A stretch of 64,000 nt of DNA, taken from the NCBI GenBank assembly GCA_017499595.2, contig CM039005.1, positions 310,001 to 374,000 on the forward strand, given 5' to 3'. Below, one piece after another: positions 40,926 to 50,115 of this stretch (positions within the stretch are counted from its first letter, which is position 1; the number at the start of each line of letters is the position of its first letter). Below the pieces are notes generated by a model. The model made no database searches. It was not told where the DNA came from and saw only the letters and a program-made list of their open reading frames with translations. Made by a program: the position numbers and the translations under genes. This DNA comes from Psilocybe cubensis. Its lineage: Eukaryota.

Positions 40926-41595
40926 CACTGAGGGCGTTGACCGCTATAAGTTAAATATACAGCAGAAAACTTACATGTCTTATGTAAGTTTAGGTGTATG
41001 TTCAACTTACAGCATATGTGTCGGGAAAACAAAAATTTAACAAAGACATATTGTGTTTGGTGGCTATATGCCAACCAAACACAATTGCTGTAAGTAGCCT
41101 GTAAATAGAATAAACACCTAAATTACACAAATTGTGTTTGTCCGGTATTAGTAAAACATATACATTTTCTGTAAATGACACAAACAGCACTTTCTGTAAG
41201 TAAAATTTACACACAAAAAACACTATTTGTGTATGTCAGACTTATACCATTAAATGAATTGAAAAACTTGTGTAAGTATAACATACACAAATTGTTTTCT
41301 TTGTGTGTAATTTTTACTTACAGTAAGTGCTGTTTGTATTACTTACAGAAAATGTGTATGTTTTACTAACACTGGACAAACACAATTTGTGTAATTTAGG
41401 TGTTTATTCTATTTACAGGCTATTTACAGCAATTGTGTTTGGTCGGCATACAGCCACCAAACACAATATATCTTTGTTAAATTTTTGTTTTCCCAACACA
41501 TATGCTGTAAGTTGAACATACACCTAAACTTACATAAGACATGTAAGTTTACTGCTGTATGTTTAATTTACTTACAGCAGTCGGCGCCTGCAGTA
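40926..41595. mobile_element. Foldback/MITE-like non-autonomous DNA transposon with ~320-bp inverted arms and CACTG termini (CMC/EnSpm-like)
   Basis: Left arm 40926-~41247 is the reverse complement of right arm ~41270-41595; starts CACTG, ends CAGTA (degenerate CAGTG); TAT flanks both sides (40923-40925, 41596-41598). Confidence 0.8.
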
Positions 41596-41672: not shown

Positions 41673-42115
41673 TATCAGGGTTTCTCTAGTTTCCCCTCTT
41701 TATCTTCACAGAATTATCTTATCCTTTCATTATCTTATCAATTATCTGATTAGATAGTTTATTTCTTTCATCACAGCCTTCTTGCTCTACTTCTTTCTAG
41801 TAATTCTATATGATTCCTAGTCTTACTCATCCTTTTTCTATATGATGTCACTTTTATTCTTTAACCTTCCTTTATGATGTAATGTAGGGAATATTCTAGA
41901 ATAGCTGTAGAGTATAAATACTGGACTTGTAGATGGCTGTAGCTTTAGCTTCAATCTCTTAGGATATCCATTATCATTGGTATAATCTCTTAGAATCATT
42001 GAGTCTCTCTCACTCTCTTATTTTCTCTCTGCTCTCTTACTCTTCCTCTGCTCTCTCTCTCTTGCTTGATCTTTGTTGGTGGCCTTGTCACACTGATTAT
42101 AGTGTTGCCCTGACA
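41673..42115 (+). mobile_element. 5' LTR (443 bp) of a Ty3/gypsy retrotransposon remnant
   Basis: TATCAGGG (degenerate TGTCAGGG)...CCCTGACA terminal inverted repeats; TATAAATA at 41913-41920; followed by a PBS-like site and gag. Confidence 0.88.
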
Positions 42116-42117
42116 GA

Positions 42118-42128
42118 AGATTGAAGCT
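42118..42128 (+). other. Self-priming primer-binding site (Tf1-type)
   Basis: AGATTGAAGCT, 2 nt after the LTR end, is the exact complement of AGCTTCAATCT (41947-41957), which lies ~27 nt downstream of the LTR TATA box. Confidence 0.72.
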
Positions 42129-42150
42129 CTCTCAAGACAACTCCACCATC

Positions 42151-42594
42151 TGTCAGGGCAACACTATAATCAGTGTGACAAGGCCACCAACAAAGATCAA
42201 GCAAGAGAAAGAGAGCAGAGGAAGAGTAAGAGAGCAGAGAGAAAATAAGAGAGTAAGAAAGACTCAATGATTCTAAGAGATCACACCAATGATAGTGGAT
42301 ATCCTAAGAAATTGAAGCTGAAGCTACAGCTACCTACAAGTCCAGTATTTATACTCTACAGCTATTCTAGAATATTCCCTACATTACATCATAAAGGAAG
42401 GTTAAAGAATAAAAGTGACATCATATAGAAAAAGGATGAGTAAGACTAGGAATCATATAGAATTTACTAGAAAGAAGTGGAGCAAGAAGGCTGTGATGAA
42501 AGAAATAAACTATCTAATCAGATAATTGATAAGATAATGAAAGGATAAGATAATTCTGTGAAGATAAAGAGGGGAAACTGGAGAAACCCTGACA
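42151..42594 (-). mobile_element. Solo LTR (444 bp) of the same family, inserted in inverted orientation
   Basis: Reverse complement of 41673-42115; TGTCAGGG...CCCTGACA ends; 5-bp TSD CCATC at 42146-42150 and 42595-42599. Confidence 0.92.
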
Positions 42595-43052
42595 CCATCT
42601 CTCTTTCAACACCAAACTCTTCACTTCTTCAACCTCTTCAACATTATCACCTCAACCTTCTTTCTCCACTTCCAATCTACCAATCTCTTCACCAATCTCT
42701 TCACCAATCTCTTTACCAACCTCTACTTCTCCACCAACCTTCAACATCTTCCTTAAGACTTTTCCTCAAGACCTTTGGCTCATCATCTTTCCTACTCTCT
42801 GTTGTGTGCTGTGTGTAAACTTAGTAGATAGGGATACCAACTGTTGGGGCAGACACAGTCCTACTAGTATTCTGTTTTTGGTAGGCTAGAAAATATCCAG
42901 TAACCCTGTGATCCTAGGTTTAGAGCCCTGAGTGGTGTAACAACTGGGTATCCAGTAGATAGATATTTTTTTTAGAGTACTTAGTGTAATTTCAAGGGCA
43001 CTTTCAGTAGATAGCTTCTCCCACACACACATCAGAGAGCCTACTCCTACCC

Positions 43053-43631
43053 ATGGACATGGATCCCTTCCAATTGCCTCCCACCTCTCCTTCTGTGGAA
43101 GAGCTCATGCATGAGGTCCAGCTCCTTACCCAAGAGTTGAATTTTCTTAGACAGCAGCAGCAGTCATCATCTACTCCACCACACCCTCAGCAACCAGTCA
43201 GTCAGTCACCATCATTACCACCACCACCACCACCACCTGCTGCTCTAGATATTCACTCTTTCCCTACCCCTCATGTTGCCCCTTCCTGTTCACACTCTGT
43301 CATTAAAGTCTCACCTCCAGATCCATTTGATGGTTCTATGGAGAAGGCAGAAAACTTCCTCAGTTAGCTCAAATTATATTTCTATGGAAAAGGGATTACA
43401 GATGACTTTCAGAAAGTTATTTGTACTCTATCTCATATGAAAGGAGATACTGCTGGGAAGTGGGCATATGAGAAGACTAAAGTAATAGACAATGCTTAGT
43501 CCCAAGAAGGTCTTTGGGATGACTTTGTTTATGAATTTAGGGAAGTGTTTGCAGATCCAGACCCCTCCAACACAGCTAATCATAAAATGCACATGCTCAA
43601 GCAAGGCAGGCAGACTGCTGATGAGTATGTA
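43053..43631 (+). pseudogene. gag: Degenerate, truncated Ty3/gypsy gag (Retrotrans_gag-like)
   Basis: IKVSPPDPFDGS...FLS*LKLYF...ICTLSHMKGDTAGKWA...WDDFVYEFREVF...MLKQGRQTADEYV with in-frame TAG stops; sequence character changes abruptly at ~43632. Confidence 0.85.
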
Positions 43632-45207
43632 AAATTTTTTGGAAAAAAAAAACTACAAATGTGTTCAAAAAAGCATAATCTACATATCTGTGGTTCAAAA
43701 ATGTAGAATAGTGTGAGTGCAAAAGGGCTGAAAAGGTTCAGAGGTAAGCCAACTTTTGCTTACCTAAGGGGGTGCTGGTTCTATAGTGAACTCTCTGTGA
43801 TTTGGGGACCCAGTCACTGGCTTGGGTCACCAGAAATATTATGTAATTTGGCACGCTTGGGCCCTTCCGCGCGCCAAAAAATTCAGAATTTTGTGCATTT
43901 CAGTGTGCTAAGTTCTCCAAGAATCTCCCGATCGCCCGCCTTGTCACTTGCGGTCACCAGAGTTTGGCGGGTGCATAGACCCTCAGGTCACCAGCTTTTC
44001 GATGTCCGACAACTTTTTAAGTAACTTCGCGGCCATTGGCGGCATGGCCATCTTAATTGGGCTCCGCCGCGTCATGTGATGGTTCCCGCAATCCGTTACA
44101 CGGTCGCGTTTTGGAGCTTCTGCAAACCGTTTAAATGTTGAACATAAACAGTGACACCAGTTCAATCTTGTTTATTATGGGTTGGATAGTAATGGGTATA
44201 ATTATATCTTATTGTATGTACCAAACTCAATTTTAAAGCCTCAGACTTTTGCAAAAAAGACTCATTAGAGCCTTCAAAAATTAATATTTACACCAGTAAG
44301 AAAGGTTTACTTCTGCTCTGACAGTACTGTATTCACTATGTACATGCTTTTGTGTGTATGCTGGAGTGTGAACTGCTAAAGTATACATGCAAAGAGTGCA
44401 TGCTGCAGTTGGCACATAAGATTGTATGCAATCTCCTCATTTCTTGGAAATAATTCAACTAGTTATTGTTATGATCACGTTGACCCGTGTCAGTACTCAT
44501 TTAAACGGCTGAAAAGTGAAATAAAAGTACAATCTACATCCTGAAACACAAATAATTCACAGATGAGACTCGGAATTTTGCATTTTCACCTTTAAATAAG
44601 TCATTTTATGCTCAAATTTAGGCAAGTTGATGCTTCCACTCCTTGATATTAGGCAAACGAGGAAGGACAGATTAGTCTGACTATATACAAGAGTATAGTG
44701 TACTGATTTAGATGTTTCTGACATTACAATTTTAAAAAAATCTTCCAAATCATTGAAATTGATGGGAAGCGGGACTTGCGAGTTTCACTGCGGACCTCAA
44801 GTGAAGTCACAGACCTTTGTGACCTAGGGCCTAAATTTGGCGGGCGGTGATGAGCCCAATCTTACGATGAAGTCGAGTTGGCCGGGATGTGAGAAATATT
44901 ACGTCATACGCGTGCTTTTGTTTACGCCCCTGTCCTATTGGACTTTGGCGAACGAGTTCCGCCCGACGGTGACCACATGCATGATGCCCCAACACTGTAT
45001 CTTATCGTCCTTTCACTTTCTGCCACCATCTTGGACAACGACGAGCTTGGGCGGTTATCGTGAGATAGGCAACAACCGGGCCAACAATTTGACGTTATCG
45101 CAAAGGTACCGTCGTCGTCCTGTACGAACCCACAGCCTACTGTTTCATTAACTGCTGGGACTACCCAAGGACCTGAACAAGTCGTCGGAGGTTTGTATCA
45201 GCTTCCT

Positions 45208-48200
45208 ATGAAGAGCGGTCTGGCATTACCCAGGCGAGTGCTGTCGGTGAGGTCCCCGAAGCAGAGACTGGGATCCGCCGCGTGTCGCGCATATCATGAC
45301 GAATCGTTCGGGTTTCGCAAACCACGCGAATACGACTTTCCAGACTGTACGTCGCGCATTTTTATCTTGCTTTGAAGCCAATCAAACTTATCGCTGTCGC
45401 CGTTATGCGCAGATACCGAGGTACAGCTCAACAACCGCGCGAAAAACTCCCCACTTCTTCGTTATGTCGATTCCATGCGTACGCATAGCCATCGCGCCGC
45501 CCGCATCGACCCTCTGGATCTCATCCATCGAGAAGAAGTCGCCGCACTCTTTCCGGAGAGATACGGTTTGAATGATGATGACAAAGTATACGACGTCAAT
45601 GGTATTATATGGACGAAACGCGTCGGGGAGGCAGGCGAAGGTGAAGAGTTGTGGAATCTAAAGCAAATCAGGGAGCACTTGAGGAAGGTTTATGTTGGGA
45701 ATATTGCATATGAGGTGAGCCGCCCTTCATTTTTCGCGTCGGTTGAGTGACTCATAATACCTCGAGTTCATGCATTCGCCTTCGAAAACTGAGCGACTGT
45801 GGTTCTCGCACCTCCTGGAGTCCCAATCTTTACCCTCCCCAGAAGACACGCCATTAGTTCAAATGGATATCACGAAAAAGAAGCGCATTCATGAACTATT
45901 GGCACGAAGTGAGGTCTTCGACAACTTTCTGCAACTAAAGTTCCCCAATTTGAAACGTGTAAGCTCCTCCCCTTCATTTGTGTGCTCGACTTCACAAGCT
46001 TATCTCATGTGTAGTATGGGCTTGAAGGGGGAGAGTCCATGCTCCCTGCTCTTGACTCTCTCTTTTCAGCTGCTTCCCTGGGTGAGATCCGTACGTACGT
46101 AAGAGTTGAAAATGTTTCTAATACATTGTGTTGTAGCCGGCGTACACCACGTTATTCTTGGTTCGTTCGCAGATCTACTCGTTCTTTTCATTGGATTAAC
46201 AGGATATTAGCTATGCCACATAGAGGTAGACTCAACCTCCTCACCGACATCCTCCAATACTCCCCCGCAGCCTTGTTCCATAAAATCAAGGGTGGGTACG
46301 AAATTCCGGAAGACCTGGGTGCGGAAGGAGACGTATTGAGTCATTTGGGTGAGGCCATGTTTATGTCAAACTTTATCAATATGATTTAACTGGTTTGCAT
46401 GCTTTTAGTTTCGTCGCCCTCATTGTCATACCCTGGTGCATCTCACCCAATCAAGGTCTCTCTTTTGCCTAATCCTTCGCATCTCGGTAAGCAGACCTCG
46501 TAGGAACACTGATGGTAGTGGGGAGTGACATGAAGTTTTCAGAGGCTGTCAACTCCGTCGCTATGGGCAAAACTCGTGCTAAACAGTACTCCCTCCTGAA
46601 GACATCGCCGGATGACTGCAAGTTGGGCGACAAAGTGATGTGTGTCCAACTTCATGGAGATGCTAGTTTCACTGGACAAGGTGTCGTCATGGAGAGTCTG
46701 GGTCTCAGTGAGTCTCTAAGTCTGTTGGGTTGTGAGGAACACGGCGGCTGACAGGATGTAACAGGCAATTTGCCCCACTTCACCAGTGGAGGAAGTGTGC
46801 ATTTGGTTGTTGAGTACGTATTTTGGATTTTCTATGCGTGAATAGCTAGCGTTGAACGTTCCCTTTATTTTTGTAGCAATAAGTGAGGAGAATATTCTAC
46901 TTAAATATTGTCATAAAATGTGTACTAACAACGCACCCATAGCATCGGATATACTACCCCGGCTTCTAACGCTCGTTCATCCCTGTATTGCTCTGACATT
47001 GGAAAAATGATAAACGCTCCCGTTTTGCATGTCAATGGTGATCACCCCGAAGGTAAGCTAGCTTTTCCGGCTCCCAGATATATTATCTCTGAAACTAGGT
47101 CTTTAGATGTGGCAAAGGCCATGGATATTGCGTTCAGGTATAGGAACTACTTCAGAAAGGATATCATCGTAGATTTGTTGGTGTATAGACGATGGTACGT
47201 TTTTCTCTAGTCCCCGCTACTTGTGATCATGCTGACGACACGTCCACTATGTTTAGGGGGTGAGTAACGTATTTTATCCTGCATGGCTACCTGACCTAAT
47301 GAACTATCGGCGAAGACACAACGAGCTGGATTTACCTAGCATCACCAGCCCCTTGATGTACGAAAAGATCGCTGCACGGAAATCTGTACCTCAACTTTAC
47401 GAACAAAAGCTTGTCGTACGTCACCTTTCCTAAACATCTCAACATTCCCATGATTAATCGTTTCCTCTACCCAGGCGGAAGAAGTTTTGACTTTGGAAGA
47501 TATCAACGCTGTCCGAACTTCGTACAAGTCTCAGCTGGAGGCGGAGCTCGCACGGGTTCCAACTTACGTCCCGTCTGCTTCGATGCTGGAGGAACAATGG
47601 TCGGGCATTGTATGGCCAGCGACCCCAGAGGCACAGCATAACCCTGTCACAGGCGTTGAGAGGGATGTCCTTGAGAAGATTGGCAAGGCCAGCGTTGCTG
47701 TACCCGAAGGATTCGTACGTTCGCCTTTCTACTTACTGCTTTACAGGCGGGCGTGCTGAAAGGACGCATGGACGTACAGCAAATTCATCCCAAACTGCAT
47801 CGACATGTTAAGAATCGCTTGCAGAGCGTCACCACTGGGAAGGGAATTGACTTCGCTACCGCTGAGGTGAGTGGTTATTTACTATCCGAAGCCGGGGTTT
47901 CGCATTGCTTATGAGCATGTGCACAGGCCCTGGCATTTGGCTCCCTCTTGCTAGAGGGCAATGATGTTCGAATCTCAGGACAGGACGTGGGTCGAGGCAC
48001 GTTCAGCCACCGGCATGCAATGCTCGTTAATCAACAGAATGAGGGTGTCATCGTCCCGCTCAATGATGAGTTGAAAGCAGATGGTAAACTGGAGCTTGCG
48101 AACAGTAAGTCCCACGCTTCTTCACGGGTGGCCTTATTGAGTTTTAACATTTAAACATATAGGTTCGCTGAGTGAGATGGCAGTACTTGGTGTACGGCTA

Positions 48201-49341: not shown

Positions 49342-50115
49342 CTTAGCCAGCTCAACATTGTTCTCTTCTCGGTGATAATCAATAAATAGTCAAGCTAGTC
49401 AAGTGTAACCTGTAATTAGCTCGGGTCGGTCTCTGATCCGGAATACTTTACAGCTATTTTCATATCGATAGGCCCAACGTAAAAATATATTCATACAGTC
49501 GGACTTGAATATTGACTCATTTCTGCGTAACCGAGTTACATAAGGAATGCTCCTATGTTGATTTTATTTTAATCTATGGTACGATCTTGCAGAAAAGCGC
49601 TGACATGCCTTTCAGCTTGAGAAGGGAGTGTCTCTAGGATGCTGCTGATGTGGTGGTATTGCTTTAGTTCTCGTAGCTCGACTTTTTTTGTCAATACTCA
49701 TCGACGATTTTGCTAGTTCCCCTGATTTGCCGTCTTTAAATTTGATGCTCCGCTCAATAAAATTCATTATCCGTGTATGTGTAAATTTAGCGGATAGGTC
49801 TATCGATATGAAAATAGCTATAATTTTGTCATATGCTCAATTGTTGAATTGCGAAGACGACTACATCGACTTTTGGCGCATTGACACTGACAGTAACCAA
49901 GCGCCCCTGGCAAGATCTATTTGGGGTAACTGCCGTGTAGGCCTTGGACACTCGTTGAAGACATTGTCAATGACCCAGTGGCACATCTACTCTATTGTCA
50001 TGGCCAACATTGCCGCGCTTTTCTCAGTAATGCTAGTGGTATACCTGACAACAGTGGCACGCTATCATTCTATAAAAGCATTATGATCATGTTCACCAAC
50101 CTTAATTCACCCAAG

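Follow-up and report, generated by a model that had tools for sequence, protein, structure and literature searches.

A solo LTR inserted in reverse behind the 5′ LTR of a dead retrotransposon copy of the same family: a probable relic with predicted capacity for hairpin RNA

Little is known about how the silencing of retrotransposon families begins, and the proven natural triggers that our literature search turned up derive from DNA transposons of maize. The Mu killer and Ac killer loci of maize are natural inverted repeats of the 5′-end of a DNA transposon, for which dsRNA, siRNA, and heritable trans-silencing have been demonstrated. The Mu killer hairpin RNA is approximately 4 kb long (PMC3440606) and the locus includes transposase sequence; the repeats of the Ac killers measure 1.8-3.9 kb, and in one of them, p1-ww-id4, the promoter, apparently that of Ac, lies inside the repeat (10.1101/2020.01.07.897926). 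In mouse oocytes, the inverted LTR pair LTRIS_Mm, located in the intron of a host lncRNA, gives rise to 21-23 nt RNAs, which were observed directly (PMC6944382). Inverted tandems and opposite-orientation nesting of LTR elements were also described in Drosophila populations, generally in few strains, and the available sections of that paper claim no silencing role for them (PMC5932611). At the DNA level, the yeast fragile site FS2 is formed by inverted Ty1 elements with a 280-bp spacing, an effect that inverted delta LTRs may show in weaker form (PMC3778018). All these systems are summarized from the available portions of the sources. No natural LTR-retrotransposon killer locus of a fungus was found in the titles and opening lines of abstracts of the open-access literature.

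The locus described here lies in a 64,000-nucleotide stretch of DNA, the window (G000:C8:310001-374000), of a 46.6-Mb assembly comprising 21 contigs; its genes are rich in introns, which indicates a fungus. Like the maize killers, it carries a natural inverted duplication of an element 5′-end; however, the element is a retrotransposon, the arrangement arose by nested insertion, and the 169-bp non-coding stem is a prediction. It shares with p1-ww-id4 the promoter inside the repeat, and with LTRIS_Mm the inverted pair of same-family LTRs as a potential hairpin source, but here, judged by sequence alone, the LTRs are their own putative promoters. The Drosophila nestings have the same origin and are mostly strain-limited, just as the locus in the window is absent from another isolate, and FS2 shares the closely spaced inverted retrotransposon repeats, which are represented here by 443-bp arms and a 35-bp spacer. 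By analogy, the locus could act like the LTRIS_Mm pair, and it is not classifiable as a killer. Being clean, polymorphic, and marked by its own alleles, it offers a test case in which RNAi or histone marks could be held responsible for whatever silencing occurs, since the family lacks CpG; if inert, it is an ordinary nested insertion. The features of the region are as follows.

40926-41595, no strand assigned: palindromic non-coding DNA transposon of 670 bp, ending 77 bp upstream of the host LTR
41673-42115, plus strand: 5′ LTR of the host element, 443 bp, beginning with TATCAGGG, that is, with G>A at base 2
41913-41920, plus strand: TATA box TATAAATA of the host LTR
41947-41957, plus strand: 11-nt self-primer complementary to the PBS, marking the putative RNA 5′-end, 34 nt past the TATA start
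41947-42115, plus strand: R-U5 of the host LTR, arm 1 of the predicted 169-bp RNA stem
42116-42150, plus strand: 35-nt loop, formed by the first part of the host leader and containing the self-priming PBS (42118-42128)
42146-42150, no strand assigned: left copy of the target-site duplication (TSD) CCATC
42151-42594, minus strand: inserted solo LTR of the same family as the host, 444 bp
42151-42319, minus strand: R-U5 of the solo LTR, arm 2 of the stem, with the putative RNA start at 42319
42346-42353, minus strand: TATA box TATAAATA of the solo LTR
42595-42599, no strand assigned: right copy of the TSD CCATC
42600-43052, plus strand: remaining leader of the host
43053-43630, plus strand: broken and truncated host gag with stops at 43365 and 43497; pol and the 3′ LTR are absent
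43631-43781, plus strand: left-truncated, unrelated short repeat at the deletion junction, found in at least 36 other places; its tail continues past 44848
43782-44848, no strand assigned: 1.07-kb repeat inside the short repeat, found in 4 other places

The structure is that of a solo LTR nested in reverse, 35 bp behind the 5′ LTR of a family member that is itself dead. In the uninterrupted family members, CCATC is present once at the same point of the leader, which represents the empty site; thus, the duplication is a true TSD and the 444-bp solo LTR a real insertion, as the initial annotation had proposed. An exact 5-bp duplication was found in 50 of the 57 insertion units of the family that were examined, and a target-site preference for CCATC was rejected, because the 50 duplications show no fixed motif. 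The two arms are 97% identical over 443 bp and differ by 13 transitions, no transversions, and one indel, in good agreement with the dozen or so transitions and single indel counted earlier by eye. The two converging TATA boxes reported at the same time also proved to be real motifs, identical at both positions. The separation of the PBS from gag, pointed out there as well, stands in so far as the insertion lies between them, but it has no consequence today because the host gag contains stops and everything past 43630 has been lost. Beyond the old-type alleles shared by both arms, the host arm carries 9 substitutions (and 1 deletion relative to the family majority) and the insert arm carries 4, which agrees with the order of nesting; the U3 of the solo LTR is identical to the family majority at all columns. 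Bases private to one arm lie at 41971 in the host LTR and at 42259 and 42310 in the solo LTR. Six of the nine host-LTR-specific substitutions cluster within 52 bp (41933-41984) around the putative RNA start. The C>T changes of the host fell into CpC (6), CpA (5), and CpT (1) contexts, with one context unresolved, and hypermutation of the CpG type was rejected as the source of the arm differences because there is no CpG there to mutate. Gene conversion between the arms and derivation of the insert from the host itself were likewise rejected, as no derived allele is exclusive to both arms.

The host can be aligned to its siblings over 41675-43630 at 93-96% identity and nowhere beyond, and its broken gag shows 93-95% identity to the 11 siblings compared. 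The short repeat at the deletion junction (43631-43781 plus 44849-44866) has 151 bp kept without CpG and contains a small hairpin near its end. Past the repeats, the right neighbor is a 2-oxoglutarate dehydrogenase E1 gene and the left-side neighbor is a hypothetical gene; a Pfam search with the ORFs left of the locus gave no match. A weak inverted repeat with 50-nt arms of 78% identity, possibly an old MITE, lies just downstream of the dehydrogenase gene (49448-49823). The DNA transposon upstream of the host LTR has 301-nt arms, a 22-nt loop, CACTG ends, and a 3-bp duplication, and we take it to be CACTA-like. Palindromic transposons of this kind, with arms of ~300 bp, have at least 24 genomic copies, two of which directly abut each other at G000:C3:717211-718530. 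Transcription of the minus strand from the solo LTR would continue into the copy at 40926-41595. The locus is therefore one layer of a pile of transposons from four families, and long hairpin-forming repeats are common in the genome.

The 19-nt pattern of the LTR ends of the retrotransposon family occurs at 102 genomic places, with 38 pairs at element spacing, and 42 PBS sites were found. In the intact sibling L034, Pfam recognized Ty3_capsid and zf-CCHC in gag, and RVT_1, RT_RNaseH, Integrase_H2C2, rve, SH3_Tf2-1, and Chromo in pol; no protease family scored above the Pfam threshold in this element. By the sequence order of reverse transcriptase, RNase H, and integrase with a terminal chromodomain, the family is classed as a Ty3/Gypsy chromovirus. 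Its LTRs have TG...CA ends, and the elements have a polypurine tract and a 5-bp target duplication. Chromovirus clades described in basidiomycetes include MarY1, Tcn1/2, and Laccy (PMC2864245). According to the available part of the source, complementarity of the PBS to the RNA 5′-end is the signature of self-priming in Tf1/Tj1 (PMC4600332). In all 41 of 41 5′ LTRs, the sequence following the 5′ LTR matches a site inside the LTR over 11-12 nt, and this match lies 34 nt after the TATA in the 40 5′ LTRs that bear this TATA motif, while complementary matches in control flanks (n = 58) did not exceed 9 nt. By this complementarity, the family is assigned to the Tf1/sushi type of self-priming elements; it shares with Tf1/Tj1 of fission yeasts the gag and pol layout, the PBS–RNA 5′-end complementarity, and the 5-bp duplications. 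The self-priming match places the putative RNA 5′-ends at 41947 (plus strand) and 42319 (minus strand).

The family is almost free of CpG: 37 elements contain 11 CpG in 234,997 bp compared with 9,789 expected, and in 29 of the 37, including intact 6.4-kb elements (e.g., L034:1001-7393), there is none at all. In pol of L034, CGN and NCG codons are never used. In contrast, nine other LTR families sampled in the same genome (33 loci) show CpG observed/expected ratios of 0.49-1.23. Deficiency of CG in basidiomycete transposons has been published (Clutterbuck 2017, as cited in PMC11451569). The accessible portions of two further reports state that methylation in Pleurotus is mostly at CpG and that 21-nt RNAs go with transposon silencing there (PMC6191308), and that active elements of Marasmius show low CpG methylation (PMC9674265). 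If this fungus resembles Pleurotus and Marasmius, a CpG-free family could not be locked by CG methylation; consequently, RNAi becomes more relevant and heritable CG silencing unlikely. Under this condition, a heritable killer becomes harder to sustain, and the routes still possible are RNAi after transcription or histone marks. At the domain level, the genome contains 3 Dicer_dimer loci, 8 Piwi loci (20 exon matches), and 4 DNA-methylase loci.

The initial annotation had suggested that a transcript from either LTR could fold back into about 170 bp of dsRNA, and this holds as a prediction. With the putative RNA 5′-end at the start of the stem, the model gives a stem of 169 bp and a loop of 35 nt, reachable from either LTR promoter, so either could yield the hairpin RNA. 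The calculated fold energy is -296 kcal/mol for the plus strand and -331 kcal/mol for the minus strand, whereas the same stretch of a normal element reaches -39 kcal/mol; z is -34 and -36, respectively, and 0 of 100 shuffles was as good on either strand. Judged from its sequence, the solo LTR appears to be the better-preserved promoter with the more perfect stem. In run X10, which is guessed to be an RNA run of another strain and whose contigs show presence only, one spliced contig matched the neighboring dehydrogenase gene and none matched the LTR or gag, a result that is given no weight here.

Several observations bear on the age of the locus relative to the rest of the family. The leader-gag part of the host carries 18 private substitutions in 1031 bp, the joint highest number among 42 copies, of which 15 have zero. 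Both arms carry old R-region alleles that are common to 8 of 94 other LTRs; besides the arms, their carriers are an element with 6 differences between its two LTRs, a broken element, and five solo LTRs. Identical LTR pairs occur in 23 of the 37 elements, both ORFs are full length in 21 of these 23, and none of the 23 has the old R alleles, suggesting that most copies inserted after the locus was formed. The hairpin locus thus probably predates most intact copies of the family, with the reservation that dating of the solo LTR is indirect, as it has 2 private substitutions only and private changes may predate insertion (L041, L055), and that the LTR tree is mostly unresolved (3 of 49 inner branches are well supported).

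Not every isolate of the species has the locus. Run X16 consists of raw DNA reads of another isolate under the same species label, with the neighboring gene covered ~33x. At three host-private positions all of its reads had the family letter (358/358 and 342/342 at 42760, 468/468 and 471/471 at 43064, 818/818 and 900/900 at 43365), and since the host alleles are absent at several private sites, this isolate lacks the host copy. Its gag depth corresponds to ~45-50 internal copies, and 110-118 LTRs were estimated, compared with 42 and 102 in the present genome. This similar load shows, for one isolate against one, no large effect of the locus on the load of the family.

Considering these results, we read the locus, with a probability of about two in three, as a near-neutral relic of nested self-insertion that retains the capacity for hairpin RNA. 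As a source of LTR siRNA it is most likely minor at best, and it did not halt the family. In the proposed order of events, a self-priming chromovirus copy first inserted between the 2-oxoglutarate dehydrogenase E1 gene and the hypothetical gene on the left, as its remnant shows. A second copy, of the same older sub-lineage, then entered the leader of the first in reverse orientation, 35 bp from its start, as the duplicated CCATC and the empty site show, and would have been reduced to a solo LTR by LTR-LTR recombination, the standard mechanism. The host lost pol and the 3′ LTR by deletion and gained its stop codons, both of which are visible in the present copy. A firing LTR promoter would read R-U5, the loop, and antisense U5-R, giving the 169-bp hairpin as a putative Dicer substrate, and siRNAs from it would cover the 5′-end of the family mRNA. 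The exact geometry counts against the relic reading, being rare under uniform insertion: the family would be expected to contain ~0.18 self-insertions, and ~0.001 that are reverse and lie no more than 100 bp from the end of a 5′ LTR. Insertion was found to be non-uniform, with 10 of 58 flanks matching transposon proteins (12 minus 2 of the family itself; a lower bound) and 19 of 58 being CpG-poor. The intact U3 of the solo LTR and the preservation of both TATA boxes count against it as well. Furthermore, a silencer that segregates in an outbreeding fungus may not have been in the same nucleus as the expanding elements, and the finding that young copies differ from the arms mainly within the stem region could also be caused by a hairpin effect.

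The most serious alternative, which we nevertheless consider rather unlikely, is a working hairpin-siRNA locus that damps the family post-transcriptionally, with Dicer cutting the hairpin and Argonaute targeting R-U5. This region starts every family mRNA and holds the self-primer, RNAi would be the main brake in the absence of CpG, and sub-lineages with a changed R would have partly escaped. The near-perfect minus-strand fold, the intact U3 of the solo LTR, the Dicer and Piwi domains, and the near absence of CpG are consistent with such a role, as are the precedents of the mouse-oocyte LTR pair and the Pleurotus 21-nt RNAs, in so far as the available parts of those reports describe them. About half of the stem 21-mers are within one mismatch of the family 5′ LTRs (median 77 and 81 of 149). 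Moreover, the median number of changes that separate the solo arm from the 23 youngest elements is 1 in U3 (275 bp) but 10-11 in R-U5 (169 bp), and the old-type element L050 differs from the 21 intact copies at 9 of 170 R-U5 sites, 0 of 274 U3 sites, and 4 of 653 four-fold sites. However, the family expanded later and its load is similar with and without the locus, and the old-to-young shift extends to the leader outside the stem, where L050 and the intact copies differ at 14 of 459 sites, as would fit a template-switched 5′ block. The diversity of R among the 21 intact copies (18 of 116 segregating sites) is just ~1.8 times that of four-fold sites (58 of 653), with an uncorrected p = 0.04 from one of several comparisons among related, non-independent copies. 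Template-switching exchange of a 5′ block, or weak constraint on the CT-rich R, explains the divergence equally well as escape. A bolder version, which we hold to be improbable, is that a CpG-purged family was kept in check by RNAi from its own misplaced copies, LTR-hairpin siRNAs acting against R-U5 until a later burst with a changed R-U5; the burst sub-lineage differs from the solo arm by ~6% in R-U5 and under 1% in U3. If true, a mushroom-forming fungus would possess a natural retrotransposon killer locus along with fossil traces of the escape from it.

It is very improbable that the main effect of the locus is exerted at the DNA level, the 443-bp, 97% identical inverted repeat with its 35-bp spacer serving as a hairpin fragile site, which may also have caused the loss of the 3′ part of the host. 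FS2 is a precedent for this, as far as its description was available, and each of the three family loci with inverted LTRs shows damage, but this is expected anyway in old copies. In addition, the deletion begins ~1 kb past the repeat (43630), both arms and the duplication are intact, and the lack of any derived allele exclusive to both arms gives no sign of arm-arm conversion. The other two loci, L069 and L070, were found among ~60 loci, and both are old copies. In each, an inverted family LTR faces the 5′ LTR from ~6 kb away without duplications, so they probably arose by rearrangement. At L070:7339-7748 (G000:C13:1.915 Mb) the inverted LTR and 6 nt of the PBS are fused to the end of pol, and this copy also carries a 775-bp element with 34-bp terminal inverted repeats. 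L069:783-7777 (G000:C4:2.90 Mb) has a partial 3′ LTR, 380 bp of foreign Gypsy pol, and then the inverted LTR, which is shortened much like its 5′ LTR.

Still less probable is a true Mu killer-like locus imposing dominant, heritable trans-silencing on the whole family, as the initial annotation had envisaged. The inverted duplication of the 5′-end with its own promoter does resemble the Ac killer p1-ww-id4 as described in the accessible part of its report, but the locus is of an older layer than the elements whose LTR pairs are identical (23 of 37), and the 21 intact ones among these co-reside with it in the genome and look younger. There is no copy-number deficit relative to the non-carrier isolate, and CpG, the dominant methylation context in Pleurotus, is almost lacking in the family. 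The stem is short and non-coding in comparison with the Mu killer hairpin RNA, and medians of 31 and 46 of its 149 21-mers match the 40 other 5′ LTRs exactly. These comparisons, which are indirect, lean against heritable trans-silencing, and the analogy was not borne out.

An assembly or fold-back read artefact is the least credible explanation: among the matches listed for the region compared (42116-45900, the side of the right arm, in 4 of 17 runs, with the contig runs X2 and X5 collapsing repeat variants) no read or contig crosses 42150/42151, but a fold-back would give identical arms without duplication instead of 13 transitions, an indel, and an exact 5-bp duplication, and X2, which may be the source sample and hence non-independent, shows 0 differences over 44819-45900 at the right edge of the pile.

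Further repeat structures were observed elsewhere in the genome. The solo LTRs L085 and L086 (G000:C9:1.382 and 1.393 Mb) lie 10.7 kb apart in identical flanks and represent a local segmental duplication. A Copia reverse transcriptase domain forms a tandem array with a 4714-bp period at G000:C2:2200959-2253546 (9 identical-scoring units and neighbors), and a second such array, with a 4484-bp period, is located at C4:2.866-2.880 Mb.
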